A stretch of DNA of 63,844 bases, counting the filler, from Stramenopiles sp. TOSAG23-6 (taxonomy: Eukaryota), in the NCBI GenBank assembly GCA_900128565.1. It is 9 parts of 9 records of this genome, joined end to end, with 100 filler letters (N's around TTAATTAATTAA, not from the genome) between each part and the next. Parts side by side here need not be neighbours in the genome. Positions count along the whole stretch, not along the records: positions 31,451 to 39,188 come from LT636524.1; 8 more parts are not named here. One strand, written 5' to 3'. This document shows, one piece after another, positions 14,981 to 48,160 of this stretch. Below the pieces are notes generated by a model. The model was not told the DNA's origin and made no database searches. It saw nothing but the letters and a program-made list of their open reading frames with translations. Every line of letters begins with the position of its first letter. Positions within the stretch are counted from its first letter, which is position 1. Both the position numbers and the translations under genes were made by a program.

Positions 14981-15024
<44 letters not shown>

Positions 15025-15168: not shown

Positions 15169-15572
15169 GGCGAACATTTTGAAGATTTTCAACCATTCGA
15201 AGCGAGAGGTTTTGTAAGTCGTTTACTTGGCATGGGTGATATAAAAGGCCTCATGGAAACAATGAAAGATTCAAAAATTATGGAGAATGCTCCGGAAATG
15301 ATGGATCGCTTATCTAAAGGAAAATTCAGCCTTCGGGATGTATGTTTTATTTTTTTCAATTTCGAATTTATTTATTTTTTACTATGAAAATTTCGTACCT
15401 GACGAATTTTTTTTTATTAAAAAAAATATTTTTTCACAACACATATGAGAGATCAATTTGAAGGTGTATTGAATCTTGGTCCTCTTAATCAATTTATGTC
15501 AATGATACCCGGTCTACCAGCAGGAGCCATTCCAGAAGGTGGAGAAGGTGCGAATCGGATCCGACGATTTAT
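15169..15572 (+). CDS. SRP54: Signal recognition particle 54 kDa subunit, internal exons; intron 15340-15444
   Basis: GEHFEDF.PF...FVSRLLGMGDIKGL...GKFSLRD|MRDQF..VLNLGPLNQFMSMIPG. Confidence 0.92.
15340..15444 (+). mobile_element. Introner-like GT-AT intron in SRP54
   Basis: CGG GAT|gtatgtttt...cacaacacat|ATG AGA restores conserved FSLRDM; there is no AG in the intron 3' region. Confidence 0.85.
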
Positions 15573-15814
15573 GTACTTTTTCATTATGAATTTCAAATTT
15601 TTTTTTTTTAGNTTTCGTACNGAAATTTTGTACCTAACAAATTTCGAATTTANNNNNNNNNNNNNNNNNNNNNNNNNNNNNNNNNNNNNNNNNNNNTTAA
15701 TTAATTAANNNNNNNNNNNNNNNNNNNNNNNNNNNNNNNNNNNNNNNNNNNNTTGTTAGGTACAAAATTTCGTACGAAAAATAAATTCGAAATTGAAAAA
15801 AAAATAAAACGTAC

Positions 15815-16918
15815 GTGTCTTGATCTTGAGAAACTTGATCACTGTTTCTGCTTGTCCTGCCATCCACACCAATATGATAAAAAAGTGAATTACATCTTGT
15901 CGACTCTTCATTATCACATGTGTCTTTATCTTTTCTCAATTGAATTTCTCCAAGACAAAAATTTGCAATACCAACTCTGAACGCAAAATTTGCCTCTGTG
16001 TACTTTGCACTGAAAGGGAAACCATCTTTATTATTTAATTCACCATGCATGTTTTTTGGAAAAATATTTCAAAAAAAAAAACCTAAATTTGTTAGGTACA
16101 AAATTACGTACGAAAAAACAATTCGATTTTTTTGTAAAAAAAAAAATAAAACATACATTCTTCCAACACTGCTAAGTCTTTCACGATCATACAATGAAGC
16201 ACCATTAGTATATGAACCCCAAACTACACCTTTTTGAATATTTATACACCTATGTCTCACTTTCATATTTAACTTTTCATATTTTTTCCAAGGTTTTCGT
16301 ATAATTTTTTCTGACCATTCTTTGTAATCTTCTCTTAAAATTATCCCAACTAATTGAGTATCTATTTTTAGTATATTAATTGCACTTTGAATTGGATTTT
16401 TTGCAGCAATTGTAGCTCTTTTATCATCAAAGAAATTAGGTTGCATAACCCAATCATTTTCTAATGTTAAAATGTATGGGGCAGAGCAAAGTATTTTGGA
16501 AAAATATTTCAAACAAAAAATCGTTAGGTACAAAATTTCGTATGAAAAATAAATTCGAAATTGAAAAAAAAATAAAACGTACAAGATCAAAGAATAGAGT
16601 ATTCATTCCATAAGCTAAACCATAATTTGAAGAGAGAAGAATACGCTTTTCAATTTGAAATTCTTGTACAATGGATAGTAACTCATCTACATCTTCACTT
16701 CCATTGTCAACCCAAACGATTTCATAGGGAACGTCATCACCATGATTCTCAAAAAGTTCAATAGCTGAAGTTAAAGTTTTTCGTAAAAGATCTAACCTAT
16801 TCCATGAGAGCAAAGTCACACATACTGTTGGTTGTAGCTGTGGAAAGTCTTTCCGTATTATATGTTTGTATGAGCTCACAACTTGTAATGCTACAAACAA
16901 AAAAAACAATCTCATCAT
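15815..16918 (-). CDS. Secreted/Golgi GT2-like glycosyltransferase (3'-partial)
   Basis: Signal peptide; LLSWNRLDLLRKTL, EIVWVDNGS, N.GLAYGMN, PYILTLENDW. Confidence 0.75.
16489..16582 (-). mobile_element. Introner-like GT-TT intron
   Basis: GAT CTT|gtacg...ccaaaatacTT|TGC TCT; the acceptor TT copies the last exon dinucleotide. Confidence 0.75.
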
Positions 16919-23024: not shown

Positions 23025-23679
23025 ATGTAATAAAATTTTGAATATAATGAAATTTTTATTCAAGGAAGAGACAGTTTATGAATAATTCTTTTTCTGTAAC
23101 CATTTATTCACATATAAATTAGGATATAACAATTAATCTTGATATTCATTAAACGAATCACAAGACCATAGTTCACAGACAAAGTCCTGCATCTACATCT
23201 TATTTGTTCAGTATCATATAAAAATATAACCTAAAAAAATAATTAGTCATTCTTTTTAGCAGCAAATATCGATTTTTAGGACAGAAACTCAGCATCTATT
23301 ATGCCATATAAGTCTTTTACTACCACAACAACCCTTACTGTATTTTCTTTTCCTCTTCCTCCTCCAGCCCTAAAGGATTAAAATCCAGGTTGGAGTTCTT
23401 CAATTGTAATTCCAGGTTCAGGTTCAGGTTCAATTACAATTTCAGGTTCAGGTTCAGGTTCAGGTTCAGGTTGAATTTTAACATCTTTGAGACGATTTTC
23501 CNNNNNNNNNNNNNNNNNNNNNNNNNNNNNNNNNNNNNNNNNNNNTTAATTAATTAANNNNNNNNNNNNNNNNNNNNNNNNNNNNNNNNNNNNNNNNNNN
23601 NAAAAAAAAAAACGTTAGGTACGAAATTTCAAACCAAAAAAAAAAAAAAAAAATTAAATTAGAAATTCATATAAAACAA

Positions 23680-25321
23680 ACAAGCTCTTTGAGATCATCT
23701 GCAGCATTTGTATTTTCTGGAAACACAGTCAAAAGACATTCTTCCGCAGTTTTGTTCCATCCACTATTTGCGTGATCACCACTACTAGGGTTAGGGTTTC
23801 CATATGTTTTAAGAATTCCATTTCGAATAGTTGCCAACTGTTCCATCACAAACTTTGATGTAATTTGTGAAGCATCAGGTGCCTTCATTATAGTTAACTC
23901 ATCCAAAAATCTTTGGACTTCACAAAGAACAGGTATCTGATCCACAAGAACTTCATTAATGTATTTTCGAATGCGTCTGTTTTGTGAAAAAAAAAAAAAT
24001 TACAAAAAAAAAATCATTAGGTACAAAATTTCGTATGAAAAACCAAAAAAAAAAAAATTACAAAAAAAATATATTTTGTTTAGGTACAAAATTTCGTATG
24101 AAAAAACAAAAATAAATAAATCATGATACAAAAAAAGAAACGTACAAAATTGTGTCTTTTCTGTGGCCTGAAAATTGATATCGTTTCCGACACTCACCTT
24201 CACACATTTATTTTGGAAAAATATTTCAAAAAAAAATCTAAAAAAATTTGTTAGGTACAAAATTTACTATAAAAAAAAATTTCGATTTTTTTGTAAAAAA
24301 AAAATAATAAAACATACATAATATTATACATTATTAACCAACACTGCGCTTCATGTTTTGTTAGTTTCAATAAATTTCCTGGTTCAACTGTCGTCCATGT
24401 ATTACGTATGTATTTCTCCCAAGTGCCTTCAGGAGTTCTCCGAGTCCATGTATTGTGAAACAATATTTATTTTTTTTTTTACCAAAAAAAAAAAAAAAAA
24501 ATCGTTAGGTACGAAATTTCGTACGAAAAAAAAATAAATTCCAAATTCAAAAAAAATGTAAAAAAATAAAACATACATGGTGGATTTTCAATGAGTGGCA
24601 CGATACAAATCATGACATCGTGAGTGTCTAAAATCCTTGTCATTACAGCTAATGGTAATTTTGTAACATGCTCTGTCATGTATCTAAGTACTGTAATAGC
24701 AGACACAGCAGATCGGAAATTAATCTCACTCACTTGTCGCTCTAAGTCCTCGAGTGCTGTTCTGGCATTCATTTCTTTTACAATTTGACTTGCATCTTTT
24801 TTGGGTTCTTTTTCAGGAGGTTTTGTACACACCAAATGAAGCGTCTTCCGTACACAGTAATCCACTAGCTCAATAATGAGGTCTCCTGCAGCTTCGGCGA
24901 CGTAATCGTGATACATGATGACTTCAAGTAAATTAACCAAAGCTGCTTCGTGGTAACGAATGAAATATGTTCGAAGTGAGCCTCCATTTCTTTGTGAAGC
25001 ACGAAGTTTAATTATTGGATATAGATATTGACCCCATGCCTCGACAACAAGCAGTTCATGGATTAAGAGACCTATTTTATCGTGTGTTACAAGTGATTCA
25101 AGTACAAAGTTCTCTGAGTTTGAAACAACACAGTGATGAGCTTGCAGATTAAGTTGTTGAATTTGTTGGTGTTGTTTAATCCACGGAACTGTACCTACTT
25201 CAGGTAACGCAAACCTCTGCAAGTTTTCTATTATACGTTCTGCTTCTGCTGCAGACAAAACCGCACATCCTGCTTGAACATCATTATTATCCGTGTTGGA
25301 GATATTTAATAAATTATTCAT
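23680..25321 (-). CDS. ZMYND10: ZMYND10/BLU dynein-arm assembly factor (3'-partial); introns 24448-24576, 24206-24317, 23977-24145
   Basis: QLNLQAH, LIHELLVVEAW, YHEAALVNLLEV..YH, LVDYC.RK, ENPP|WTRR, EAQCWL, LRIRKYINEVLVDQIPVL. Confidence 0.9.
24448..24576 (-). mobile_element. Introner-like GT-AT intron in ZMYND10
   Basis: CCA T|gtatg...cacaatacat|GG ACT CGG restores conserved ENPPWTRR. Confidence 0.88.
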
Positions 25322-31350: not shown

Positions 31351-31572
31351 NNNNNNNNNNNNNNNNNNNNNNNNNNNNNNNNNNNNNNNNNNNNTTAATT
31401 AATTAANNNNNNNNNNNNNNNNNNNNNNNNNNNNNNNNNNNNNNNNNNNNTTTCNTCNTGATTTTNAGATTTTTTTTTTATAGAAAATTTTGTACCTAAA
31501 CAAAAAAGTTTTTTTTTTACGATGAAAATTTTGTACCTGACAATTTTTTTTGAAATATTTTTCACAGTACAT

Positions 31573-33701
31573 GAACGTTATACTACTTTTGATATTTGTT
31601 GTTGCTTCAATTCATTTCCTCAATAATATTTTATTGTATGTTTTCACCAATATTCTAATTGGGGTCGCTGATAAGCGCTTACTTTCTCTAGTGTTCCTCA
31701 TAGCAACAGCAGTATTATCAGCATTTCTTGATGCGCTGACAGTTGTTGCTGTCGTGTCAAGTGTTTGTACTGGCTTCCTTGGTGTGTATTATCACGTTGT
31801 AAACAAAATCAGTCTTCCTCAATTACAGTGTAAAACTCATCTTACAAATAAAAGTTCGGAAGTATCTAATAGTATTTTTTCCCATCAAGTTCCAAATAGT
31901 GAAGACGTGAAGTTATTAATTTCTGAAAATAGTGATATACCAACACCATGTTGCTCTCCACATTACTGTACGTACGTTTTTTATTTACATTCCAAATGTA
32001 TTTTTTTTTTCATACAAAATTCCGTACCTAAAAAATTTCAAATGTTTGAAATATTTTTTCTTCAACATAAAATCTCCAAAAGTAAATCAGAATAAAATAT
32101 CAATTTCACCTAGCCGTTCTCTTAAAAGCAAGAATAAACAAACTCCAGGGCAGTCATCAAATGCAAATAATGAATGTTTGTTTGATGAAATAGAGCTTGG
32201 GCAATTGAACACTACAAAAGGTAAAACAAATAAAGACCAGAAAATAAATGAAAAAACCTTAAAAAATACAGTTCAAATGGAATCAAGTGGTATGAAACGG
32301 ATACCTTCCCTAAAACAAATTCTTAATGATGAAATTTGCCCTCCTGAAATACCTCGGGAAAATAAGTGTTTGAATAAAATACGCCGTCAGGAAATTCAAA
32401 ATAATATCGAAGATTTCAAATCATTTTTACGATCTCTCATGTACGTTTTCATTTCAATTTCGAATTGTTTTTTCATACGGAATTTTGTACCTAACGATTT
32501 TTTTTTGAAATATTTTTTCATAATCCATGTACGTTTTCAAACTCTAACCCTATTCAAAAGAAAATTAGCAAATTGTGCACCTAACAAAAAATTTGAATGT
32601 AAAATATTTGTATGATCTTTCATTATGCACAGTGCAGTAGGTACCGTTTGTGGGGGTATTACCACTACCGTTGCTGAGCCACAAAATTTAATCATTTCAG
32701 ATCGTTTAAATTGGGGTATGATTGACTTCTTTCTGAAGTTACTTCCTGTATTTTTTATTGTTTTTCCTACAACTTGTCTAATGTGCGTATTCTTGGAACA
32801 TAAAAAATGTCTTGGTTACGGAGTTAAAATGCCACCAAAAGTTCGTATTGTTCTTCAAGAGTTTGCAGATCAAGAGCTCAATAAGCTAGATGATGTGTTA
32901 AAAGCGGAGTTATTCATACAATGTATTGGTGTTGTTATTCTTTGTGTTGGACTTGTTTTGCATGTACGTTTTCCAAAATTATTATTTTTTTTCGTATGAA
33001 ATTTTGTACCTAACCAAAAAAAATGTTCTTATGAAAAAGAATATTTTTCCACAAAACATATTGCTGAAGTTGGTTTCATCGGATTACTTGTACTTGTATT
33101 TGTAACGTCATTAAATGGAATTACTGATGAACGCGATATAGCGCATGCTTTTATGGATTCAATGCCATTCGTTTCACTCATTGTTATTTTTTTCGGTGTG
33201 GTTGCGATAATTCATGTCCGTTTTATTTTTNAAATTTCAAATTTATTTGTTTTATACGAAATTTTGTACCNAANAAAAAANGTACAAAAAAANTATTTTT
33301 TNACACTATACGATCAAGAATTATTTAATCCAATTATTTCGTGTGTTCTTTCCATGAATGATAAATATCAACCTGCCGTTTTGTATACCATAAATGGAGT
33401 TCTTTCGACAGTTTCAGATAACGTTTTTGTAGCAACAGTATTTATTGATGAAATAGTTAAAACGTATAAAGATGGTACTATTAATGATGAACAATTTGAA
33501 CGTCTTGGAATTGCACTGACTGCAGGAACAAACTTACCTTCAATGGCAACTCCAAATGGTCAAGCTGCATTTTTGTTTGTCTTAACTTCAAGTATTGCTC
33601 CACTAGTCAATTTAACATATCGTAAGATGTGTATCATGGCTTTACCTTACACTGTGGTTGTCACATTTGCAGGATTATTTAGTGTTCTGTTTTTGATTTA
33701 G
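31573..33701 (+). CDS. nhaB: NhaB-type Na+/H+ antiporter (5'-partial, multi-exon)
   Basis: LSAFLDALTVVAVV, FLRSLI|MHSAVGT..GG..T.VAEPQNLII, LH|IAEVGFIGL, SDNVFVATVFI, GTNLPSMATPNGQAAFLF.LTS..APL..L.Y..M..MALPYT match proteobacterial NhaB motifs. Confidence 0.88.
32441..32623 (+). mobile_element. Two head-to-tail intron elements (32441-32528 and 32529-32623) with no exon between them
   Basis: CTC AT|gtacg...aatccat|gtacg...ctttcat|T ATG CAC; each unit has its own cctaac motif. Confidence 0.8.
32964..33059 (+). mobile_element. Introner-like GT-AT intron in nhaB
   Basis: TTG CAT|gtacg...cacaaaacat|ATT GCT GAA GTT GGT restores LHIAEVG. Confidence 0.85.
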
Positions 33702-33924
33702 TATGGTATATGTTGTACACTTTTGGATGTCCTTTTGGATAATGAAATAAAATTCTTCAATTTGAAAATTTAAGTATTTCGTGGTGATCATTTGATTTAG
33801 ATTTCGATTTATTTTGAGCGTTATACGAGCGTTACATTTCAAAAAAAAAGATACTGGTACTTTTCAAGTATTCCCCCATATAGGTACTACTATAAGAAAA
33901 CTTCTCCCCAATACAACATACACT

Positions 33925-34990
33925 ATGGGTGCAGGTGCTTCGACTGTTTTAAAAGCCGAGCTTGAAAAGCCTGCTGATGCGTCTGATGTAACGACTTTTG
34001 AGCAAGGAAAAGCAGAAGTATGTCGTATTCGACAGTTGCTTAGAAACCAGCATGCAATGACTGAAGCATCCACCTTTGCTAATCGAATATCGGTAGCTGT
34101 GGATGGTTCAGAGTTGTCACACAAAGCTTTCGACGTCGCTATGGCTATTCGACCAGGGTCTGACTTACATGTCACTGTTCTTACGGTGGAGGACAAATCA
34201 AAAGACTATCTACCAGGAGAAATGCATGCTTCCTCTTTGGTTGAAAAATATCAGGCGGAGTTAGCTTCGTCAATGGGACAGGATACGAAATTTGAAGTTT
34301 TAATTGAACAGAAAGAAGGTACCACACGGGATACAATTTGTAAATTCGTAAATTCCAAAGAAATGCAACCACTTACATTTCTCGCCGTTGGAATGGTTGG
34401 TCGAAAAGGAAGATCACGAAAAGAAGGGGAAAAAATTATGGGTTCTACGACAGACCTGTCAATGAGACAAGGAAATTGTGCAACGTTGATAGTAAAAGAG
34501 AGTTCTCGTCTTGTNCCCGCCAATGAACCTGCTAATTGGATTGTGTGTGTTGACGGAAGTGCAAGATCTAAGAAAGCAGCCGAATTAGCTTCTTTTTTGA
34601 AGAAAGAATCAGATAATCTTACTGTTTTACACGTGTACGTTTTCATCATGAATTTCATTTTTTTTTATTTGTATACGAAATTTTGTACCTAACAAANTTT
34701 TTNCTAAAAANTTTTTTTTTTTTNCACANTACAGAAACTCGGATGGAAAACGAACAAAGGAATTAGCTGCTCAATATCCAACATTTGTAGCTATCGAAAA
34801 AGTCGGGGGAACGACTATTGCAACACATATTCTTGATTACTTGGATAAAGAAGACGTTACTTGTGATTATCTTGTTATGGGTGCAGATGGTGAGGAAGCA
34901 TTTAAAATGGGCAAAAGATGCCTTGGCTCAGTTAGTGATAAGTTAGTCAGAAAAGCGGAAGCAACATGCTTAGTTCAATCCAACCTATGA
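33925..34990 (+). CDS. Tandem universal stress protein (USP) domains with N-terminal MGAGAS myristoylation-like motif; one intron
   Basis: ISVAVDGSELSHKAF, VGMVGRKG...MGSTTD; second domain IVCVDGSARS...DYLVMGADG...LGSVSD. Confidence 0.85.
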
Positions 34991-35162
34991 AAATATTGGC
35001 AACATGAAGTATGTTGTAGATATATGAAATCCAAAATGTAAAATATCATACAAATAATTATTAACAAAATGATACAAAATGATAAAAGAAAATTATTATG
35101 TGATTTTGAGATTTTTTAATTTTTTGTTTCAATTTAGTTTTTTTTCATACGAAATTTTGTAC

Positions 35163-36051
35163 CTAACGATTTTTTTTTGAAATATGTTCAGAATTTCTCA
35201 TCATTCGTCTTTCAATTAACGGATCTATTGAATAAGCAATTAATACTGCCGTAATGACATCCACAGAATAATGACCACGCAAAGCGATGAGTCGAATGGC
35301 TTGAAGAAGATTTAAAACGATCGTAACTAAAGCAAATTTTGTTTCACCTCCGTGAAGGAATTCCATTGTTAAAAGAGTCATGCCTAAAACATGTCCACTA
35401 GGATTAAAAATAAATCCTCGACATGTATCATTTGTAGGTGGCTAAAATGATAGATGTATATAAAGAGAAATTATTGGGTAAGTCAAAAAAATATATATCT
35501 ACAAAAAATTAAAAAAACAAAAAGTAAAAATGTAATATATAAAGGAGACGTACCCAATCGCCTTCAACAGGTACAAAACCTGGAGGTAAAGGAAGTCTTG
35601 TTGTCATGCCAATAAACATACGACAACAAATACAAGCTGTTCCTTTGACAAGTAAATTCCATCTATTTTGTTGAAAGCAACGAAACATAATGTATAACAT
35701 TCCACCAACAACTAAAAAAGAGTTACACAATGCGAGTAACTCATTTAAGAAAGGATACTGCTGAGATAACTCCAATATAAAATATAGATACTCATGACCT
35801 AAATCAAAGACGGTATCAATGAAGACAACTCTACACTCTATACCAATCCCAATGACTATACTACTCGCAAAAAAAACAAGTAACATTGGAATGGGAAGGT
35901 TCGGGCGTAAAAGTATCCATAAAACAAAGAGCTGTAAACACAATAGAGTAACCAACAAAGAATCACCCTCTATTCCGGTTGTATCAGACAATAGTTGAGT
36001 AAAAGTGGCCGGCAATTCTACCAAAAAATCAAGAAATTGTACAAAAACCAT
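35163..36051 (-). CDS. Phosphatidylcholine:diacylglycerol cholinephosphotransferase-like (PDCT/ROD1, SMS/PAP2_C superfamily); canonical GT-AG intron 35442-35553
   Basis: TTRLPLP.GF....GDW|PP, SGHV, LQAIRLIALRGHYSVD. Confidence 0.7.
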
Positions 36052-36615
36052 CTTCGTTTTGTTACAGTATTAGTAAAATGTCCACAGTTTATCCTTGTAA
36101 TCCAAATAGATGTATTAAATATTTCAATATAATACTATACTTGTATATAATCGCGCAAGAAGCTTAGTTTAGCAAGCGCAAAAATAATTCGTTTTTTTTT
36201 GACCATCAACCACGAACGAATTAATTTTTTTCACGTAAAAAATTCCGATAAACGTGCTTGCGGCTTGCTTGAATCTAAATTACTCTAGTAATTAAATTTT
36301 AATTTTAGAATACTATAGAAAAATCAATTTTGTGAGATTTGAGATTCGATGATTGAATAATTTCGAAATTTGATTAGAAAAAAAAATTGAAAAGAGTGTC
36401 ACCCGACTGTTCATGAGAAAATAATAATACTAATATATATGATTATCAGATTATTGTGAAACATCATATTTTATATGTATACAAATTAAATATTCTGTTT
36501 ACGTTCTCTTGATTTTTTTCACAGAATGTACAGCATTACGTAAATATTACGCTTTGAGTGGATTCTTCCTCAGAAATTGATGTCAATTGTCCTTTTCTTG
36601 GCGTCAAGAGAAAAG

Positions 36616-37440
36616 TTAAGCAAACATTGAAAATGCTACTGCCATTACAAATGGAGTAACGGCCATTGCAGCGAGACCACTGGCTGCACCTGGAGCACCT
36701 TCAGGAAACTGGGATTTAAATGCTTCGATGGTTGCCTCAACATCACCGTGACAAGTTTCGATGGATTTGTCAAACTTTTCTTTTGCTTCTTCGTCTTTCT
36801 CAAAAAACTCTTTGAAAAGTCTTTCGGTTTTAGCCGAAGGATCACATTTTTCTTCGAAATCACGAAGTTCGACTTGAGCACCCTTAAGGTTTTGTTTAGC
36901 AAGCTCCAAAGCTTCATCATCCTTTTTTTCTTCAGCTTCAGCAACTTTTTTTCTCGCATCTTCCACGTTTTTTTCAAGTTTTGCTTTTTCTTCTTTTTCT
37001 GCTTTTGCTTGTTCTTCATCTGCTTTTACTTCAGCTTCATTTTTTTCATCTTGTTTTTTAAAAGGCACTTCCTTGAAGTTGACAACATCGTCAAAAAATT
37101 TCTTTACAGTTGTTTTAGCAGACTCCATCTTGTCGACAGCAAACTCTTTCTTCATACTTTCATTTTTGACATTGTCGATTTTGCTCACAAATTTTTGAAG
37201 TTCATCTTTTAAATCCTCATCAATTTCTCCTGACTTCGCCCATGATTTCAAAGTTGTGTCCAATGAACATTCGCCCGCTTTTTCAGGATCAATAGGAGAA
37301 CCCGTCTCGTTCACATCACCAGCATTTGGCATACCCATAGACGGCATTTCTGGAGCACCCATATGCGCACGCATACCAATTGCACTTCCTGCGACAGAAG
37401 ATGCGGCGATTGTTGCAATTACAGTTTTAGAGAATTTCAT
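36616..37440 (-). CDS. Secreted, probably GPI-anchored, charged helical surface protein
   Basis: N-terminal signal peptide, Glu/Lys-rich core, C-terminal small-residue site plus hydrophobic tail. Confidence 0.65.
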   Translation of the reverse strand: MKFSKTVIATIAASSVAGSAIGMRAHMGAPEMPSMGMPNAGDVNETGSPIDPEKAGECSLDTTLKSWAKSGEIDEDLKDELQKFVSKIDNVKNESMKKEFAVDKMESAKTTVKKFFDDVVNFKEVPFKKQDEKNEAEVKADEEQAKAEKEEKAKLEKNVEDARKKVAEAEEKKDDEALELAKQNLKGAQVELRDFEEKCDPSAKTERLFKEFFEKDEEAKEKFDKSIETCHGDVEATIEAFKSQFPEGAPGAASGLAAMAVTPFVMAVAFSMFA

Positions 37441-37861
37441 TTTGACTTGAGGCTTTTAAAAACTTGGAAAGTTTGATTATGATTACAAAACCAGTACAGT
37501 ACAAAGTGAAAGAAATCGTTCTTTTAGTGTTCGTTTTTTGTTCTTTTGTCTTCTTTAGTGTTCTTTTGTCTTCTTTTGTTGTTCGCGAGGAACTGAGAAA
37601 TTATGACAGACCTGCTTTATGTGGAATAAAAATTAGTAAATTTGAAATTCGTTAGGTATGAAATTTTGGTATGATCTAGATCGATTTTTTTGGTCTCAAG
37701 TCAAGTCAAATCAAACTCTCAACACCAACGCTTCTCCTTAGGTAAGACTTCGCACTGTAGTAGTAGTGAACAATTCAGCGACAACTTATATATATTTCAT
37801 TACCTATTTGTATTATAGGTGCCAGGTTAGTCCATTATCCTAGCAAAGCAATGTCAAGGGT

Positions 37862-39188
37862 ATGGTAGGAGTGCAAAGTTTGGAATCTAAAGATACATTT
37901 ACGGTATCTTCTTTACTATCGTGTAAAGCTTCTATTGTACAACTTAATATTGTTGGACAAGTTGTACATAAAAGGAAAGTCAGTAAGAGACTTTGCTTCT
38001 TCGATATTATTGAACCCGGCAATAAGTCATGTAGATTAACTGTTATTATAAAGGATCCAACAAATATAGATAGGGTGCGTGAATTATCGAGACTTATTGG
38101 ACTTGGTCATATAGTTAAAATTTGTGGTATTTATCAACACGTGAGTTCTAGTATTTTATGTAAACAAATTACTCTGGTTGAAAAATGGGATATAAATAAT
38201 GGTCATTTTATACCGCAACCACCCATAGTCAAACGCAGTGTTACAATAACTAGCGAGACAACTTCAGTAAATAACTTTACTTCTATTTGTAAGTATTGGA
38301 TCAATTCAGGACGTTGTGCCAAGAATCAAAGTTGTCCATTGGCTGCAAGTCATATTTTAGGTTTACCATTAAAACGTCTACGAACCCAGTGGATAAATCA
38401 ACATTTGAGGAATAAGCGACAACGTTCTCATCTTGCTGGAGATTCACATGCAATTCATTCAAAGAAAAACAAATCATTTCGAGCTCGTGTTTTTGTTGAT
38501 TGGTTAATAACTATGTTTGGTGGTGATAAAGAAAATTTGTCAAATGGCAGTGGTGTTTTAGATATTGCTGGTGGCCGTGGGGATGTTTCATTTGAGTTAT
38601 ATACCGTGAATGGTATTAAGACGACACTAATAGAACCACGTCAACGCAAACTTAATAAATCTCAACGAAAATGGATACAAAAGAATAAGTGGATAAAGTC
38701 AGTGAAAAGTGAAACTACTGTAAGAAGAGAAAAACCAACTGATGATGACTTATCACAATTCTTGTGTCCTCATGTGCAACATTTATTTCCATTTAGTGAA
38801 GAAATCTTATCCAGTTCAAATGGAAAATATATACAAAATTTAATAGATAAAACAACATGTGTCNNNNNNNNNNNNNNNNNNNNNNNNNNNNNNNNNNNNN
38901 NNNNNNNNNNNNNNNNNNNNNNNNNNNNNNNNNNNNNNNNNNNNNNNNNNNNNNNNNNNNNNNNNNNNNNNNTTTCAAATTTATTTTTTTTTCATACGAA
39001 ATTTCGTACCTAACAAAAAAAATTATATTTTTTCACAATATATGCTGTGTATTTGCAAGTGGTACATTAAATGAAAAAAATGGTAAAAGGAAATATTCTC
39101 ATATAGATAATATGACAAATGATGTTGCATTATATACAGGTAAACATGTCTCGATGTCTTTTGAGAAGTGGTTATTGTATCTTCAGTC
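37862..39188 (+). CDS. OB-fold + CCCH zinc finger + class I SAM-methyltransferase-like protein (3'-partial)
   Basis: RKVSKRLCFFDI (OB), CKYWINSGRC...CPL..H, RARVFVDWL, VLDIAGGRGDVSFEL, LIEPR. Confidence 0.75.
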
Positions 39189-39343
39189 NNNNNNNNNNNN
39201 NNNNNNNNNNNNNNNNNNNNNNNNNNNNNNNNTTAATTAATTAANNNNNNNNNNNNNNNNNNNNNNNNNNNNNNNNNNNNNNNNNNNNTCGTACGAAATT
39301 TTGTACCTAACGATTTTTTTTGAAATATTTTTCCAAAATACAT

Positions 39344-40427
39344 GAATACTATTGACGAGCATTCAGCTTTGCAAACAGAACTACATCACATACAAAATGA
39401 AAAGAGAAGATTAAGAGAAATATATCAAGCTATGGACCAACAACAAAAAGCATGGATCTCTGATGTACACGAAATTCATATGCGAGAGAGCAAAGAGTTA
39501 ATTGGAAAGGCGCAACTCATTGAGGACCAGCATGTACGTTTTTCTATCATTTCAATATCGAATTTATTTTTTCGTACTACATGTTGTACCTAACAAAAAA
39601 AAAATTTAAAATATTTTCCCAAAATACAGAAAGAATCCTTAGACGCTCTATCATTCATAACTAAATGCTACAATACAAACTTTGATGCAGCGTTAGAAAA
39701 AGTTACGACAGCAAAAAAATCTTTAGCTTCTATTCTGCAATTTCAGGAAAATATGATACAGTCAAGTATTATTGAATCAAAAAATTTCAATAATAATACA
39801 AACTTAGCAAAGCAGGATTTGCTTCAATATAGAAAAAGAGAAAATATTTTGTATACACCAAAATGTTTTGACTCACATAGTGCTACCCTAGAGTATATAC
39901 AAAAGAAAACATCTGCCTTGGAAGAGTTTCTACTACGTAAAACAAAATTTACACAAAATGATAGAGAAAAATATAAATTCCAAATTGACGAAGTAAAACA
40001 ACAAAGAGGAGAATTTGCTGAAACCGTAATTTTACTACAGAAACAGTACGATGAAATTAAACAAAACGTGGAAAATATGACAGTAGAAGTGAATAAAGAA
40101 GAATCTTTTAATAAAGAATTAAGACAAGAAATAGTCAGTCCAGTCATTAGGACTCAAAACATAGAATTAGAAAAATCACTGATTTCTGAAACACACGAAA
40201 TCCAAGATAATATATCAGAAGGACAGTTGTTTAGGCTAAAGTTGGAGAAAGAACTATACCCAAAATCTCACACATTACATATGGAAAGACATAAAATTTG
40301 TGCTCTCCAAGTAGAACTTGGAGAAATTGCTGTAGAATTAGAGAATGTAAAACATCATACATATGTTGAACATGCTGTGGCAGAGCTGTTAAAACATGGG
40401 GGAAAATCTGAAAACATAGGAAAATAA
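39344..40427 (+). CDS. Coiled-coil hypothetical protein (5'-partial); GT-AG intron 39534-39629; mirror copy at 45882-46965
   Basis: Continuous frame after removing CAT|gtacg...aaatacag|AAA. Confidence 0.6.
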
Positions 40428-40649
40428 AGAAATTAATTAACACAATCTTCTCCATAACCCTAACCCTAGGTAATTTTTTCGTTTTCAAATTAATTTACGT
40501 CGTGCAGAAGAAGAAGTTGGAACTGTGTTCTTTTCATAATATAGCGTAGAGTTCCGTGGAGTATTCATTGAAATTAGATTGCTCATACGAATTCATCTTT
40601 CATAATAGGATAGACTTAATTTCAATAGTATCATAAAGTTTCTGGCTGC

Positions 40650-42077
40650 ATGGTACCGGGAAATATGACCAAGGAAGTAATAGGAGGAACAAAGCGCCCT
40701 GCTCCCATGAAGGGTACAGCAGCAGCTAAGAGGAGACGTGCTTCCCGTAATAGAGACGGAAACGAAAAAACTCCACATAGACGTCTTAAACGCGTGTTAC
40801 TCAAATATGGTATGAAGCGACGAACGGTGAATTTGCAAGAAGCATATAAAAAGGAACTTAGTTGGATGCGTCCAAAGTTAGCGAAGAATGCACGGAAAAA
40901 AGAGCTTTTGATTGAAAAGGCTGCTTTAAAACAAACAGGCGCTAATCCCCCCCTTGAAATAGACCTATATGACTCAAGCGCTTCGTCATCATCTTGTATG
41001 AGTGAAAATGATTATAGTGATGGAGAATTTCTTTGGAGCTCCAGTGATGACGACTGCATGAAAACTGACGAAGATGCCCAACCGGTAGTTGCTATTGTCG
41101 AGCCTAAAGTTAACAATTTTGCGGTAGATTTTTGTAAGAATGGCCCAATACCAAATGTAGGAAATGTATTAGAAATTTGGAGTGACGATGATTTGAGATA
41201 TGAAAATCCTCTTTGCATAGCGACAGTTCTTGCAGATGAGGAGTGTATCAAACGTAGGAGCAAGCGCATTGTGAATCTGATTCGCCAATACAAGCATAAT
41301 TTCCGAAGTTTACGACGACCGATAGCAGAGAAATGTCAAGAATTTAAACAGAACTTTAAAAAAGAGCTTGAAGCCAAGCGGAAACTCCGAAAAGAGATTG
41401 AAGCAGCAGATGCTGATAGTGAAGATAATGAAGATAATGAGAAAAAAGAAAATGAGTTCAATGCAGGAAATAATCTCTTACAAAAAAAAGAACCTAGTGA
41501 AGGTTCTGGTATTGGAACGACACGGCGTAAACGACGCCATTATAGTGAAATGAAAGGAATGTATGGCTCAAATGGTTTGAAGTCGAAAGCAAATAAGTAT
41601 AAATTTCGGCACTATCACTATACCCATGGTTTGAACCGTACAGGAAAGGAAAGTTTCAACTTTCTCAATATGAAAAGTATGTACGACACTCAAGCAACGC
41701 GAACAATATGTGCTTGTCAAAACTGTGATAATGGCGTTTTACCTTTAAGTTTGTATTGCCTCTCTCACATTGTACATGATGAGAATCAAACCTTGTATAA
41801 AGCGTGCAGTGTTGCCGGCTGCAATGGTCCAGTACTACGCTTGGAAGAATGTGATGATAGATATGCGCATATGTATTCACTATGTGAAATGCATCGCCTA
41901 GAAGAACAAAAGAATGTTGATGAAGAAATTTCTGGAGAATATACCCAACAGCAATTTACTTGCCCGAAATGTGAACAAGTATCGGTTTGTGATATGGGAG
42001 TCACACAAATATCATGTTCTGTGTGTGGTCAGGTACTTTTATTACAAATCACGGAACCATTACCAGATGCAGTTTGA
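40650..42077 (+). CDS. zf-C3Hc3H protein (KANSL2/INO80D-like)
   Basis: C...NC...VLPLSLYCLSHI.HDENQTLYKACS...C..PV...LC.MH. Confidence 0.75.
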   Translation: MVPGNMTKEVIGGTKRPAPMKGTAAAKRRRASRNRDGNEKTPHRRLKRVLLKYGMKRRTVNLQEAYKKELSWMRPKLAKNARKKELLIEKAALKQTGANPPLEIDLYDSSASSSSCMSENDYSDGEFLWSSSDDDCMKTDEDAQPVVAIVEPKVNNFAVDFCKNGPIPNVGNVLEIWSDDDLRYENPLCIATVLADEECIKRRSKRIVNLIRQYKHNFRSLRRPIAEKCQEFKQNFKKELEAKRKLRKEIEAADADSEDNEDNEKKENEFNAGNNLLQKKEPSEGSGIGTTRRKRRHYSEMKGMYGSNGLKSKANKYKFRHYHYTHGLNRTGKESFNFLNMKSMYDTQATRTICACQNCDNGVLPLSLYCLSHIVHDENQTLYKACSVAGCNGPVLRLEECDDRYAHMYSLCEMHRLEEQKNVDEEISGEYTQQQFTCPKCEQVSVCDMGVTQISCSVCGQVLLLQITEPLPDAV

Positions 42078-42289
42078 GAGGACTGTTGGAGAATATAATG
42101 AATTTATCTTTTTATATAAAAAGTATTATATAATTGCGTAATTTTATTTATAGTATGGCATAAAAGAGCAAAATACAAAATATTGAAAAATATAAAATAC
42201 GGAGAAAAAAATATACTCTTAAATATCCTTTAATTAGTAAAATTCCTACAATAGGAAAATAAATTTTGTAAGTTCCATTTGCGTACTAT

Positions 42290-42384
42290 ACGTATTGTGA
42301 AAAAATATTTCAAAAAAAAAAAATTGTTAGGTACAAAATTTCGTATGAAAAAAAAAATAAATTAGAAATTCATATAAAACATAC
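42290..42384 (-). mobile_element. Intron element with GT-GT ends in the presumed 3' UTR of PP4R3
   Basis: atgtGT|gtatgtttt...gtacctaac...cacaatacGT|atag. Confidence 0.7.
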
Positions 42385-42408
42385 ACACATTTAATATATC
42401 ACCATTTC

Positions 42409-44050
42409 TTATATGACACGTTGTCTTTTCAAAGATGGTGAACCTGTTGCAACTATAGTATTTGTTACAATCACTTCTTTATTTTTCGTATTAGGGTCAA
42501 TATCATTTTTAGTCACTCGCGCATCAACCATATTTTTATCTGAATCTATATTTTCCGAAAAAGTCGGCATTTGATTATGCATTTTGGAAAAATAATTCAA
42601 AAAAAAATTCGTTAGGTACAAAATTTCGTACGAAAAAAAAATCAAATTGAAAAAAAAAAAAAAAACGTACATCATCATTATCATCATCAAAATACATTTC
42701 TTCATCTTGTGCATCCNAAAAATCTCTGTTGTCGCCTAGCCGACTCAATGGCTCCAGCACCAGTCATTCTACTATGCAATAAATCTTGCCTATTGGTAAA
42801 CGGTCGCGAATCTTCATTATTTTGGTTGTACCTCTCGAGTAAACCAGAAAGTATCTGAGCACTTCCGCCATCCTTTTGTTCAAATATAGACCTCATTTTC
42901 TTAGATTCAATAATATATGTCACAAGACTTTTTACATTTTCAGCACGAATAAATTCTATTAACTCAAGTATGGCAGAATCTAAAAGATTATTCCGAAATT
43001 GATTCCGATCCCATGCTTCAAACACAGGATCTAGTAAATTATTTTTAATCAAATGTCGATTATAGAATTCGTCCTGTTGTCCGATACAAGCCCGTACAAA
43101 ACGTAATGCGCTACAAACGACATAACGTTCTCTATATAGCAACAATCGCAGTACTTTACTGATTACATTATTTCTTAGTATAAAAAATTTAATACGAAAT
43201 GTGTGATGTTGAACACAAAAACGAAGTAATTCACATATTGTAGTTTTACTTGATTTTCCAGATTCATTCTCCATTGATCCGTCATCACTCTCTTTGATTA
43301 TTTCAAAAGGTTGAATGAGCCAATCCATATAATGATCATAAAATATCTGAAGAAAAGCATCACGCTGAATGACATCCATAGCATCTATATCAAGTAAAGA
43401 GGTCAACATACCTGTTGCCTCTGCACGCATGCCTCCATCCCCTTCACTAGCAACAAATGAAACAAATAACCACAAAAGAGAGGGGAACTTTTCCATATTT
43501 TTATTCTGTAGGTCAGTTTTTTTCTTGATCAATTCTGCTGCCTTGTTATTCAGAGATAATGAGCTATTTCCCATTTTTCCAGAAAAGATTTCTCCACTTT
43601 GAACCTCTTGTATACTTCTTTTGCGTTTGTTAGAAACTTTCCTACTAGGTGGAGCTGGGTGTGCACTACTCTTACTATCTATGATGTATATTCTCAAGAG
43701 TTGTGGATCATGCATGACAACACATGAAAGAATTTCAATACAGCATCTTTTTGAATCAGCTGATAAGGGTAACACATCTACAGATGATGTGTTATGACCG
43801 TGTGTTGTACCGATAGCAAAAAGCCTCTCAAAAATTGAGAAAAAGCAACCTTTTGCATTTTCAACATTCTTAGAACCAGTCGATACTAGTGACTCATCAG
43901 ATGCATTACCTGTAGCTGATGCTGGTGTAGTACTCTCAGTAGATGTTGCATTGGATTCAGTGTCCTTTTTGTCACGGTTTTCTATACTACCGCCAGTATC
44001 GCCCTCATTACGACTACATAAATATAGAGAGCAATAAAAAACATCACGAT
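42409..44050 (-). CDS. PPP4R3: PP4 regulatory subunit 3 / SMEK (5'-truncated)
   Basis: FLQIFYDHYM, ICELLRFCVQHHTFRIKFFILRNN, ALRFVRACIG..DEFYNRH.IKNNL, NNLLDSAILELIEFIRAEN.K.L. Confidence 0.9.
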
Positions 44051-44231
44051 CATCCTGTTGTAAGTTTTTTGCTAATTAAAGGATATTTAAGAGTATATTT
44101 TTTTCTCCGTATTTTATATTTTTCAATATTTTGTATTTTGCTCTTTTATGCCATACTATAAATAAAATTACGCAATTATATAATACTTTTTATATAAAAA
44201 GATAAATTCATTATATTCTCCAACAGTCCTC

Positions 44232-45659
44232 TCAAACTGCATCTGGTAATGGTTCCGTGATTTGTAATAAAAGTACCTGACCACACACAGAACATGATAT
44301 TTGTGTGACTCCCATATCACAAACCGATACTTGTTCACATTTCGGGCAAGTAAATTGCTGTTGGGTATATTCTCCAGAAATTTCTTCATCAACATTCTTT
44401 TGTTCTTCTAGGCGATGCATTTCACATAGTGAATACATATGCGCATATCTATCATCACATTCTTCCAAGCGTAGTACTGGACCATTGCAGCCGGCAACAC
44501 TGCACGCTTTATACAAGGTTTGATTCTCATCATGTACAATGTGAGAGAGGCAATACAAACTTAAAGGTAAAACGCCATTATCACAGTTTTGACAAGCACA
44601 TATTGTTCGCGTTGCTTGAGTGTCGTACATACTTTTCATATTGAGAAAGTTGAAACTTTCCTTTCCTGTACGGTTCAAACCATGGGTATAGTGATAGTGC
44701 CGAAATTTATACTTATTTGCTTTCGACTTCAAACCATTTGAGCCATACATTCCTTTCATTTCACTATAATGGCGTCGTTTACGCCGTGTCGTTCCAATAC
44801 CAGAACCTTCACTAGGTTCTTTTTTTTGTAAGAGATTATTTCCTGCATTGAACTCATTTTCTTTTTTCTCATTATCTTCATTATCTTCACTATCAGCATC
44901 TGCTGCTTCAATCTCTTTTCGGAGTTTCCGCTTGGCTTCAAGCTCTTTTTTAAAGTTCTGTTTAAATTCTTGACATTTCTCTGCTATCGGTCGTCGTAAA
45001 CTTCGGAAATTATGCTTGTATTGGCGAATCAGATTCACAATGCGCTTGCTCCTACGTTTGATACACTCCTCATCTGCAAGAACTGTCGCTATGCAAAGAG
45101 GATTTTCATATCTCAAATCATCGTCACTCCAAATTTCTAATACATTTCCTACATTTGGTATTGGGCCATTCTTACAAAAATCTACCGCAAAATTGTTAAC
45201 TTTAGGCTCGACAATAGCAACTACCGGTTGGGCATCTTCGTCAGTTTTCATGCAGTCGTCATCACTGGAGCTCCAAAGAAATTCTCCATCACTATAATCA
45301 TTTTCACTCATACAAGATGATGACGAAGCGCTTGAGTCATATAGGTCTATTTCAAGGGGGGGATTAGCGCCTGTTTGTTTTAAAGCAGCCTTTTCAATCA
45401 AAAGCTCTTTTTTCCGTGCATTCTTCGCTAACTTTGGACGCATCCAACTAAGTTCCTTTTTATATGCTTCTTGCAAATTCACCGTTCGTCGCTTCATACC
45501 ATATTTGAGTAACACGCGTTTAAGACGTCTATGTGGAGTTTTTTCGTTTCCGTCTCTATTACGGGAAGCACGTCTCCTCTTAGCTGCTGCTGTACCCTTC
45601 ATGGGAGCAGGGCGCTTTGTTCCTCCTATTACTTCCTTGGTCATATTTCCCGGTACCAT
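44232..45659 (-). CDS. KANSL2/INO80D-like protein (mirror copy)
   Basis: Identical to 40650-42077. Confidence 0.7.
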   Translation of the reverse strand: MVPGNMTKEVIGGTKRPAPMKGTAAAKRRRASRNRDGNEKTPHRRLKRVLLKYGMKRRTVNLQEAYKKELSWMRPKLAKNARKKELLIEKAALKQTGANPPLEIDLYDSSASSSSCMSENDYSDGEFLWSSSDDDCMKTDEDAQPVVAIVEPKVNNFAVDFCKNGPIPNVGNVLEIWSDDDLRYENPLCIATVLADEECIKRRSKRIVNLIRQYKHNFRSLRRPIAEKCQEFKQNFKKELEAKRKLRKEIEAADADSEDNEDNEKKENEFNAGNNLLQKKEPSEGSGIGTTRRKRRHYSEMKGMYGSNGLKSKANKYKFRHYHYTHGLNRTGKESFNFLNMKSMYDTQATRTICACQNCDNGVLPLSLYCLSHIVHDENQTLYKACSVAGCNGPVLRLEECDDRYAHMYSLCEMHRLEEQKNVDEEISGEYTQQQFTCPKCEQVSVCDMGVTQISCSVCGQVLLLQITEPLPDAV

Positions 45660-47243
45660 GCAGCCAGAAACTTTATGATACTATTGAAATTAAGTCTATC
45701 CTATTATGAAAGATGAATTCGTATGAGCAATCTAATTTCAATGAATACTCCACGGAACTCTACGCTATATTATGAAAAGAACACAGTTCCAACTTCTTCT
45801 TCTGCACGACGTAAATTAATTTGAAAACGAAAAAATTACCTAGGGTTAGGGTTATGGAGAAGATTGTGTTAATTAATTTCTTTATTTTCCTATGTTTTCA
45901 GATTTTCCCCCATGTTTTAACAGCTCTGCCACAGCATGTTCAACATATGTATGATGTTTTACATTCTCTAATTCTACAGCAATTTCTCCAAGTTCTACTT
46001 GGAGAGCACAAATTTTATGTCTTTCCATATGTAATGTGTGAGATTTTGGGTATAGTTCTTTCTCCAACTTTAGCCTAAACAACTGTCCTTCTGATATATT
46101 ATCTTGGATTTCGTGTGTTTCAGAAATCAGTGATTTTTCTAATTCTATGTTTTGAGTCCTAATGACTGGACTGACTATTTCTTGTCTTAATTCTTTATTA
46201 AAAGATTCTTCTTTATTCACTTCTACTGTCATATTTTCCACGTTTTGTTTAATTTCATCGTACTGTTTCTGTAGTAAAATTACGGTTTCAGCAAATTCTC
46301 CTCTTTGTTGTTTTACTTCGTCAATTTGGAATTTATATTTTTCTCTATCATTTTGTGTAAATTTTGTTTTACGTAGTAGAAACTCTTCCAAGGCAGATGT
46401 TTTCTTTTGTATATACTCTAGGGTAGCACTATGTGAGTCAAAACATTTTGGTGTATACAAAATATTTTCTCTTTTTCTATATTGAAGCAAATCCTGCTTT
46501 GCTAAGTTTGTATTATTATTGAAATTTTTTGATTCAATAATACTTGACTGTATCATATTTTCCTGAAATTGCAGAATAGAAGCTAAAGATTTTTTTGCTG
46601 TCGTAACTTTTTCTAACGCTGCATCAAAGTTTGTATTGTAGCATTTAGTTATGAATGATAGAGCGTCTAAGGATTCTTTCTGTATTTTGGGAAAATATTT
46701 TAAATTTTTTTTTTGTTAGGTACAACATGTAGTACGAAAAAATAAATTCGATATTGAAATGATAGAAAAACGTACATGCTGGTCCTCAATGAGTTGCGCC
46801 TTTCCAATTAACTCTTTGCTCTCTCGCATATGAATTTCGTGTACATCAGAGATCCATGCTTTTTGTTGTTGGTCCATAGCTTGATATATTTCTCTTAATC
46901 TTCTCTTTTCATTTTGTATGTGATGTAGTTCTGTTTGCAAAGCTGAATGCTCGTCAATAGTATTCATGTATTTTGGAAAAATATTTCAAAAAAAATCGTT
47001 AGGTACAAAATTTCGTACGANNNNNNNNNNNNNNNNNNNNNNNNNNNNNNNNNNNNNNNNNNNNTTAATTAATTAANNNNNNNNNNNNNNNNNNNNNNNN
47101 NNNNNNNNNNNNNNNNNNNNTTTTTTTTTTTTTTTACAAAAAAATCGAAAAAAATAGAATTTTTTTTTTTTTTTTTTGTTTTTTATAAAAATTTTGTACC
47201 TAACAAATTTTACAAAAAATAAAATAAAATTTTCACAATACAT

Positions 47244-48160
47244 GGTTGTCAAATGTCTGTTTGTTGGAGTCATTCAAAAATTCAAAAAGAATTTTCAAAA
47301 AAAATGATACAAACAATCACACAACAAAGATTGAGATTTGAAAGAGTTGCAAATATTTTAGAATTACCTATTGAACCATTTCTTGAAAATATTTCAAAAG
47401 TAAAATCTAGAGTATGGGGTGATCATACAGAGAAATATATGTATGTTATATTCAAATTATGAATTTTTTTTTTTTGTTGAAATAATTTTTTTTTTTTTTG
47501 AAATTTAAAATTTTTTTTTTTTTTGAAATTTTTTTTTTTTTTGAAATTTAAAATTTTAAAAAAAAAAAAAAAATGAATAACAAATGAGTAACAAAACATT
47601 TAAAAAAATATTTCTTCACAATATAGGCATGTTCTTGTACCCATCATGGATATGTTTAATCATTCACACACTGCTCCACGATTAAGCCCTCAAAGAAATA
47701 ATAATAATCAATTTATAGAATACAGATGTATGTTTTATTTTTTTTTAATTTTTTGTCTAAATTTTTTTCGTACGAAATTTTGTACCTAACAAATTTTTTT
47801 TTAGGTAAAAAAATTTTGAAATATTTTTTTAATTTTTTGTCTAAATTTTTTTCGTAGTAAATTTTGTACCTAACAAATATTTTTAGATTTTTTTTGAAAT
47901 ATTTTTACAAAATACATTTCGTTCCAACACAAACATTAAACAAAATGATCAAGTTTTTGATAACTATGGAATGAAATCTAATGCTCAATTATATAAATTG
48001 TATCAATTTGTTCAAAAAAATAATCCAAGTGACACGTGTCAATCAATACAAGAATTTTCAAAAGATAAAATTAATGAATTATTTGACAACAATATTTTTC
48101 AGACGACAAGAACATTTTCAAAAGAAATATGTGCAGCATATACATGATTGTTTGTCCTAC
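47244..48160 (+). CDS. SET-domain (Rubisco LSMT/SETD3-like) methyltransferase, internal exons
   Basis: Spliced frame gives VKSRVW...M|HVLVPIMDMFNHS...QNDQVFDNYGMKSNAQL; right boundary approximate. Confidence 0.75.

Follow-up and report, generated by a model that had tools for sequence, protein, structure and literature searches.

How does a gene dispose of two introns that stand back to back with no exon base between them, and how did they come to stand there? The question is raised by nhaB, a sodium/proton antiporter gene of the marine protist Stramenopiles sp. TOSAG23-6 (GenBank assembly GCA_900128565.1), where such a pair sits in the contig 31451-39188 of the 63,844-base stretch of DNA that we analyzed (the window, to which all positions refer; Table 1). 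We read the junctions directly as CTCAT/GTACG...(88 nucleotides, nt)...AATCCAT/GTACG...(95 nt)...CTTTCAT/TATGCAC. The 3' splice site of the first unit directly abuts the 5' splice site of the second at 32528/32529 (AATCCAT/GTACGTTTTC), leaving a zero-nucleotide exon. The initial annotation, made from the sequence alone, had described two head-to-tail intron units at 32441..32623, each with its own 5' site and CCTAAC motif, and diverged rather than a collapsed duplicate; all of this is borne out. Both units start with GTACGTTTTC, 10 identical bases, and the branch motif is TGTACCTAAC at 32486-32495 in unit 1 and TGCACCTAAC at 32576-32585 in unit 2. Being only 60% identical, the units are neither a collapsed nor a recent duplicate, and the region that spans them (31467-33230) is free of N letters.

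The host gene is covered by a public eukaryotic protein model, P0001 (eukprot:GSMAST32.ASY1.ANO1.429.1, 401 amino acids, aa), which matches the NhaB family PF06450 with an E value of 3.8e-123 over profile positions 94-499 of 515. Exons of nhaB map to positions 93-175, 207-319, and 320-370 of the same profile. Excising both units (183 nt) yields FKSFLRSLIMHSAVGTV, which reads FLRSL-I-MH-S-AVGT; if one unit or both are left in place, stops or a frameshift result. In the frame test, removal of 32441-32623 left 39 and 40 open codons on the two sides, and removal of a single unit left 18 (unit 1 alone) or 17 (unit 2 alone) on the shorter side. At the join, MH is invariant ([LIM]-M-H-x) in 15/15 aligned homologs, drawn from the 120 NhaB matches listed and comprising 3 long, eukaryote-like sequences and 12 bacterial ones.

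For RNA evidence we identified 10 seawater metatranscriptome runs from three studies, each containing 5-17% of the contig's sampled words. The assembled contigs of four of these runs were aligned to 31467-33230, and they left most of nhaB without cover. A poly(A) metatranscriptome contig (run X5, record 25; 154 nt with 0 differing letters and 52 nt on the shorter side of the joint), which covers 32385-32436 upstream, joins 32436 to 32620 and skips 183 nt. Because four letters fit on either side of this joint, the cut can be placed at 32441-32623, with GT...AT ends. A 96-nt skip at 32960/33057 is present in one contig each of X2 and X5, runs from two studies, and since three letters fit on either side, it equals removal of the next intron, 32964-33059, again with GT...AT ends. 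Summed depth is very high over 32470-32528 and 32942-33059 because other copies of the intron family described below cross-map there at 90-95% likeness. We conclude that both units are removed together and exactly (183 nt) from polyadenylated RNA, with GT...AT ends. The earlier claim that RSLIMH is restored only with both units out is confirmed by translation, by the frame test, by the 15/15 MH, and by the 183-nt skip in the X5 contig.

Unit 1, and most probably also unit 2, belongs to a family of short introns that recurs across the window. We built an nhmmer profile of 94 positions from ten clean copies of 88-108 nt, and with it found 36 non-redundant copies, each defined at one end or both, in ~55 kilobases (kb) of non-redundant sequence. 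The copies are ~90-110 nt long, with a mean pairwise identity of 0.70 and the consensus GTATGTTTTATTTTTTTTTCAAATTCGAATTTTTTTTTCGTACGAAATTTTGTACCTAACAATTTTTTTTTTGAAATATTTTTCCAAAATAC + AT; the 5' site is GTATGTTTT (or GTACGTTTT), and the branch motif is TACCTAAC. Over the whole stretch, GTACGTTTT with at most 1 mismatch occurs 67 times (24.3 +/- 4.8 expected) and TGTACCTAAC with at most 2 mismatches 135 times (42.8 +/- 6.7 expected). Copies are found at unrelated gene positions, in NhaB, SRP54-like, glycosyltransferase-like, and ankyrin-repeat genes. Their precise removal is supported by RNA (32441-32623, 32964-33059), by homology (16489-16582, 16049-16156), and by the frame test, in which exact GT...NN excision left at least 39 open codons on both sides in 20/24 introns (those at 24206, 42290, 42577, and 23977 failed). 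In multiple copies and precise removal alike, the family conforms to introners, the transposon-derived, multi-copy spliceosomal introns described from Micromonas, Aureococcus, dinoflagellates, and many others (PMC9860276, PMC12130899).

The two units differ in how closely they match this family. Unit 1 aligns to profile positions 1-93 of 94 (56.4 bits, E = 1.3e-16), and its identity to 19 other copies is 0.72 on average and 0.84 at best. Unit 2 scores only 10.1 bits (E = 0.038), with a mean identity to the family of 0.565, compared with 0.50 +/- 0.014 for shuffled copies; it shares the GT...AT ends and the AT flank with the family. The 5' half of unit 2 also holds CTAACCCTA at 32545-32553, a sequence related to the telomere-like CCCTAA units of another copy.

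The ends of the family follow a rule of their own. In the 30 copies that reach the profile end, the 3' terminal dinucleotide is AT in 23, TT in 3, GT in 2, and AG in 2. The two bases before GT, in the 21 copies with a defined 5' end, are AT in 17, AC in 2, and TT and GT in 1 each. Where both ends are present (15 copies), the pairs of 5' flank and 3' end are AT/AT (12), TT/TT (1), GT/GT (1), and AT/AG (1). Since the last two intron bases repeat the two bases before GT, we read them as a target duplication of 2 base pairs (bp), with AT preferred; support for the duplication is modest because only two pairs, TT/TT and GT/GT, are informative beyond AT. Only one AT survives in nhaB messenger RNA (mRNA), within the codon ATT, at a place that a single residue occupies in the homologs. 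All joins backed by RNA or homology have a C at position -3, apart from that of the low-quality 33216-33311 intron.

That a 3' end other than AG or AT can be used is best supported by two introns predicted by homology in a glycosyltransferase-family-2-like gene, at 16489-16582 and 16049-16156. Homolog P0121 (335 aa, 46% identity) aligns without gaps over both joins, FFDL/CSAPYILTLE against FFGLCSAPYVLTLE at the first and VGR/MHGE against VGRMYGE at the second. We conclude that GT...AT (and GT...TT) ends are the rule for the whole family and that its 3' site is not defined by AG.

We considered other readings of these ends. Cutting two bases further left, to give AT...AC introns, fits the consensus TAC/AT, but units 1 and 2 then become AT...CC and AT...TC; we rejected this reading because the 5' end would vary (AT, TT, GT, AC) while GTAYGT is invariant. 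U12-type introns carry the 5' site [AG]TATCCTT and the branch site TCCTTAAC ~10-20 nt from the 3' end. We rejected this class as well, as the 5' site of the family is unlike it and the branch motif TACCTAAC lies 33 (unit 1), 38 (unit 2), and 45 nt (32964 intron) from the 3' end. Rfam searches of the stretch found no family, including small nuclear RNAs. Selection of the 3' site by pairing of the RNA ends is unsupported by the folds of units 1 and 2, with z-scores against shuffles of -1.0 and +0.3, respectively, and no fold that joins the ends. Of the introns folded, two alone were more stable than their shuffles, 32964-33059 (z = -3.0) and 16489-16582 (z = -2.2).

How the two units came to abut may be explained by the behavior of such elements. 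Huff et al. reportedly worked out an introner mechanism in 2016. In our proposal, the introner of this genome would be a short mobile element supplied with a GTAYGT 5' site and a TACCTAAC branch motif, and its insertion would duplicate the 2-bp target, usually AT, to form the last two intron bases. Of the pair, unit 2 would be the older insertion (or an older intron) at CTC-AT/T-ATG, and unit 1 would then have inserted into the AT on the 5' side of unit 2, producing AT-unit1-AT-unit2-AT. Because unit 1 reaches an identity of 0.84 with copies at other loci and only 0.60 with unit 2, we take it to be a young copy from a separate insertion, and the mean identity of 0.565 and the 10 bits of unit 2 mark it as old and decayed. 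The suggestion that a second element had landed in the AT beside the first is well supported by the two-base flank repeat of the family and by these identities.

A relaxed motif scan of both strands of the whole stretch found units 1 and 2 as the sole abutting pair. By rough arithmetic, uniform insertion into AT (36 copies, ~5,400 AT sites, palindromes corrected) would give ~0.25 abutting pairs per window. One stacked pair, though real, is thus not improbable: so dense a family would produce it naturally, and it gives no evidence for a special targeting mechanism.

Splicing of the pair would be carried out by the major spliceosome, with the units removed as two ordinary short introns in succession, unit 1 first. 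CCAT/GTACGT would serve initially as the 3' site of unit 1, and ligation to CTCAT would regenerate a 5' site (CTCAT/GTACGT) for unit 2. We regard such stepwise removal as the somewhat likelier course, favored by the full signal set and the family-typical length of each unit (88 and 95 nt, compared with 88-108 nt in the seed copies). Unit 1 is transcribed first and is therefore expected to splice as an ordinary intron. Since no splice motif is split, no order of removal is forced, and the reverse order is also chemically possible. For the same locus the term twintron-like had been used, which we do not retain: neither unit interrupts a splice motif of the other, as the inner intron of a stwintron does, the joint falls exactly between the units, and the GTACGT, CCTAAC, and CAT ends are intact in both.

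Overall, we think it likely that the pair arose when an introner, unit 1, inserted beside the older unit 2, and that the 183 nt, whose exact removal with GT...AT ends is shown, leave the RNA in two successive splicings. Several observations weigh against this account. Six manually read copies depart from the flank rule (AT/AG, AC/AT, AT/AC, TT/AT, TT/AG, and GT/AG), which may reflect later mutations. The terminal inverted repeat (GTATGTTTT vs AAAATAC) is not significant, as 145/1000 shuffles reach its score, and the 2-bp flank repeat is therefore what remains to argue for a DNA transposon. The divergence of unit 2 (10 bits, E = 0.038) allows for an old, unrelated intron that shares only splice signals with the family, which we consider less likely. 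Palindromic, chimeric contigs occur in the assembly, and scans of public contigs yielded no independent DNA for the two-unit structure. Among the RNA contigs of the four runs, no joint lacks 88 or 95 nt alone; assembled contigs drop rare forms and cannot show rare intermediates, so this bears neither way on the order of removal. Finally, the copy at 47728-47917, one of the family members of 169-190 nt, keeps an open frame on exact excision, so that one-step removal of a 183-nt intron is probably feasible here.

This last observation bears on the alternative that fares best, in which the 183 nt form one composite intron: splicing would take place once, between the 5' site of unit 1 and the branch point plus 3' end that unit 2 provides, and the inner CCAT/GTACGT and the branch motif of unit 1 would go unused. 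Two branch motifs combined with a lone 5' site also occur in family members of 169-190 nt (47728-47917, with its open frame, and 23977-24145), and copies of this class are apparently removed whole, which makes one-step excision a serious rival. The RNA contigs show the fully spliced form only, and a complex intron of Lipomyces starkeyi can be removed in one or two reactions, according to the available text of PMC7138796. Against this, unit 1 has complete, near-consensus signals at family-typical spacing and is transcribed first, so that commitment across unit 1 is expected, and all 10 bases of the internal GTACGTTTTC match the 5' site of unit 1. We consider a single reaction possible, though the less probable course.

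Local tandem duplication of one intron, followed by divergence, would also place two units side by side, and internal tandem duplications are common in the family (47728-47917, ~55451-55627, 23977-24145). However, those duplications have near-identical halves and no element ends at the joint, whereas units 1 and 2 both have complete ends. Unit 1 is 0.77-0.84 identical to copies elsewhere and 0.60 identical to the neighboring unit 2; because its nearest relatives lie at other loci, we hold this origin to be improbable.

The presence of palindromic chimeras means that assembly quality matters for the stacked structure. The window is a chain of parts of ~7.7-7.8 kb, ordered by decreasing size (7780, 7772, 7749, 7749, 7738, 7732, 7723, 7719 nt ...) and separated by linkers of 100 bases (44 N + TTAATTAATTAA + 44 N); as it consists of several joined contigs, genes on different neighboring contigs are not linked. 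It is AT-rich, with 24-38% GC in 2-kb windows. The contig 7881-15652 is a palindrome, 99.9% identical to its own reverse complement, and the contig 39289-47020 is likewise palindromic, at 82%. Both are probably amplification chimeras of the single-cell assembly, and because they contain mirror copies, elements within them are counted twice unless de-duplicated. Single isolated Ns cluster within family introns (33231-33303, 34515-34729, and elsewhere, e.g., in introns 33216-33311 and 34635-34740), which suggests that consensus calling is unreliable in these repeats.

An assembly artifact would leave one real unit, the second being supplied by a repeat-induced misjoin or an amplification chimera. 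Short contigs with isolated Ns, two of them palindromic, give some room for this, as do an mRNA that is identical whether one unit or two are present and the lack of an independent copy in public DNA: the abutting-pair pattern had no match in metagenome_contigs, and a 23-base family core had none in metagenome_contigs, viral_contigs, or genome_contigs, so no relatives were found there. Yet the identity between the unit starts extends over only ~13 bases, which could not sustain a k-mer misjoin, and the extra piece would need to comprise exactly one element plus 2 bases, placed exactly at a boundary. Amplification chimeras yield inversions, not precise 88-nt insertions, and the spanning region is N-free. 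An artifact is thus very improbable.

The weakest alternative is that the public model is right in drawing a single canonical GT-AG intron of 192 nt at 32441-32632: although P0001 does read FLRSLIAVGTV and the ends of this intron are canonical, the RNA contig skips 183, not 192 nt, which refutes the 192-nt form as the main product, the 192-nt intron would delete MH-S although MH is invariant in the homologs, and the loss of I-A-E at the next intron is contrary to RNA from two runs, so that the model is almost certainly mistaken here. P0001 (31571-33701) reads RSLI/AVGT and LVLHV/LGFIG as a result of forced GT-AG introns, the 192-nt one and one around the next intron. It is thereby without M-H-S and I-A-E, which homologs conserve and RNA contigs keep; across the 32964..33059 join, homologs keep H-x-A-E/A-VG. 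Its initial M is a false ATG, formed where the AT that ends the upstream intron meets the first exon base, G. At these introns the public model is in error.

What sets this case apart is an introner family spliced at GT...AT/TT ends with abutting copies; introners, GT-AT introns, and zero-nucleotide exons were each already known. The larger point, beyond the initial annotation, is the combination of family-wide non-AG ends with a wrong public nhaB model. We compared the family with known systems, following the available text of the papers cited below. Like published introners (PMC9860276, PMC12130899), the nhaB family consists of near-identical short introns at unrelated positions, with their own splice signals, in sense orientation in coding sequence, and with a short target duplication that supplies part of a splice site. 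Published target duplications are 3-9 bp, compared with the 2 bp found here, which give non-AG 3' ends (AT, TT, GT), and the nhaB family differs further in having no significant terminal inverted repeat. Neither "tandem" nor "nested" appears in the main text of the two surveys, which thus do not describe abutting copies. The 2025 survey kept families with mainly non-canonical sites only if they were confirmed by transcripts (PMC12130899).

The introner elements of Amoebophrya (PMC7789003) resemble the nhaB family in their direct repeats over exon/intron borders, non-GT-AG ends, and ambiguous cut. They have inverted repeats of 8-20 nt, direct repeats of 3-5 nt, and no conserved end dinucleotides, whereas the nhaB family has a conserved 5' GTAYGT and a yeast-like branch motif, with only the last 2 bases varying. 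Productive splicing without a terminal AG is shared with Fritillaria and other tunicates, whose introns are mostly non-GT-AG (PMC13326754). In animals, GT-AT introns are rare but documented, both U2-type (DGCR2) and U12-type (PMC1557818). In the nhaB family, by contrast, GT-AT is the majority form, the 5' site does not resemble that of U12-type introns, and the branch motif lies far from the 3' end, at 33-45 nt or more in the copies examined.

The stacked arrangement has partial counterparts as well. At Drosophila ratchet points (10.1101/006163) a 3' site also abuts a 5' site with zero exon bases left, but these lie in very long introns and read AG/GTAAGT, whereas the nhaB complex is 183 nt long, reads AT/GTACGT, stems from element insertion, and is known from its final product. 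Fungal stwintrons (PMC7138796, PMC8469720) likewise place two U2-type units at one intron position, and those of the Hypoxylaceae multiply as introners do, with no target duplication (PMC8469720). The inner intron of a stwintron splits the donor, branch, or acceptor motif of the outer one, whereas the nhaB units are serial, not nested. Together with the abutting donors of Lipomyces starkeyi, stwintrons are the nearest complex-intron analogues of the pair (PMC7138796, PMC8469720). Our literature search returned no paper combining "introner" with "MAST" and no matching report of GT-AT introners or of twintron or tandem introns together with introner. Splice sites go unmentioned in the main text and three text supplements of the uncultured-stramenopile single-cell genome paper, whose PDF supplements may bear on them, and a 2026 preprint on protist single-cell genomes gives introns only as a genome fraction.

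The pair is a clean natural example of dense introner activity building complex introns, in which a second insertion into the 2-bp duplication of the first creates a zero-length exon. The family is spliced productively at GT...AT/GT...TT ends while its 5' site and branch point look canonical, which narrows the problem to how a 3' site is picked when AG is missing; in this respect the family is a simpler system than Amoebophrya or tunicates. We suggest, tentatively, that the spliceosome reads no AG at introner 3' ends, the last two bases being the duplicated target (AT, TT, GT). If this were true, every sense-strand insertion would be spliceable at once, and stacked insertions would be resolved by recursive splicing through the zero-nucleotide exon, as in the 183-nt complex. 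There is a practical side for annotation: gene predictors that force GT-AG mis-model genes of the nhaB type, here losing conserved residues at two introns and adding a false ATG. Proteomes of uncultured protists in reference sets likely carry systematic small errors of this kind, and surveys that rely on annotated introns would miss the family.

Table 1. Coordinates of the nhaB exons and introns, of other family loci, and of the linkers in the window
Feature	Position	Strand	Remarks
Family intron, contig start	31482..31572	+	nhmmer profile 31-92, 21 bits; ends GTACAT; 5' part lost to contig end/Ns
nhaB exon	31573..31971	+	NhaB profile ~93-175, then start of hydrophilic loop; PF06450 E 4.3e-24 for 31541-31960
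Family intron	31972..32068	+	97 nt, GT...AT, 5' flank AC; nhmmer 28.7 bits; no RNA cover
nhaB exon	32069..32440	+	hydrophilic loop to FKSFLRSL + AT; open frame, homolog alignment, RNA 32385-32436
Unit 1	32441..32528	+	88 nt, full-length introner copy, GTACGT 5' end, ends AATCCAT
Unit 1/unit 2 junction CCAT/GTACGT	32528..32529	+	zero-nucleotide exon, read directly
Unit 2	32529..32623	+	95 nt, diverged copy, GTACGT 5' end, ends CTTTCAT
nhaB exon	32624..32963	+	T + MHSAVGT...LVLH; profile 207-319, Pfam E 7.4e-26; RNA-covered; 100% identical to P0001
Family intron	32964..33059	+	96 nt, GT...AT; RNA skip in X2 + X5; Pfam 319/320 contiguous
nhaB exon	33060..33215	+	profile 320-370; Pfam E 2.8e-13
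Family intron	33216..33311	+	96 nt, several Ns, starts GTCCGT; nhmmer 20.6 bits; frame stays open
Last nhaB exon	33312..33701	+	to stop codon; open reading frame 33000..33701; P0001 end matches
GT...TT family intron	16489-16582	-	glycosyltransferase-family-2-like gene
GT...AT family intron	16049-16156	-	same gene as 16489-16582
Family intron, GT...AT	15340-15444	+	105 nt; in SRP54-like fragment 15142-15609, mirrored in palindrome
Composite copy (169-190 nt class)	47728-47917	+	
Composite copy (169-190 nt class)	~55451-55627	+	
Composite copy (169-190 nt class)	23977-24145	-	
Composite copy (169-190 nt class)	~57262-57436	-	
Composite copy (169-190 nt class)	~61566-61710	+	
Linkers	7781-7880, 15653-15752, 23502-23601, 31351-31450, 39189-39288, 47021-47120, 54844-54943, 62663-62762		

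Two further introns of nhaB were placed by frame and homology. At 31972..32068, the frame stays open for 39 and 40 codons on either side of the join only when the intron is cut out exactly. The intron 33216..33311 most likely ends in TATAC (GT...AC), judging from IH/DQ in the homologs; its end is uncertain, given a length divisible by 3 and low read quality, with Ns.

The gene also encodes a hydrophilic loop of ~100 or more residues at 31780-32390 (+), between Pfam positions ~175 and 190, most of which P0001 removes as "introns". An RNA contig (run X4, record 16) is unbroken over 31678-31828, where P0001 has a small intron. The three closest relatives of non-bacterial length, P0002-P0004, have 672-690 aa, compared with ~500 aa for bacterial NhaB, and there seems to be a clade of eukaryotic NhaB proteins with a large loop.

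Elsewhere in the window, the composite copies contain an internal tandem duplication of the branch-motif half, not of element ends, which gives them two branch motifs and one 5' site; exact excision of 47728-47917 keeps the frame open (39 and 40 codons). In the SRP54-like fragment, the join KFSLRD/MRDQFE at 15340-15444 resembles what we take to be the conserved start of the SRP54 M domain, and Pfam SRP_SPB matches only the exon downstream of this intron, below the cut-off. The 5' half of the copy at 13864-13906 (+), mirrored at ~9627-9669 (-), has two telomere-like CCCTAA units (AAACCCTAACCCTAAG), and such units may mark an older subfamily.

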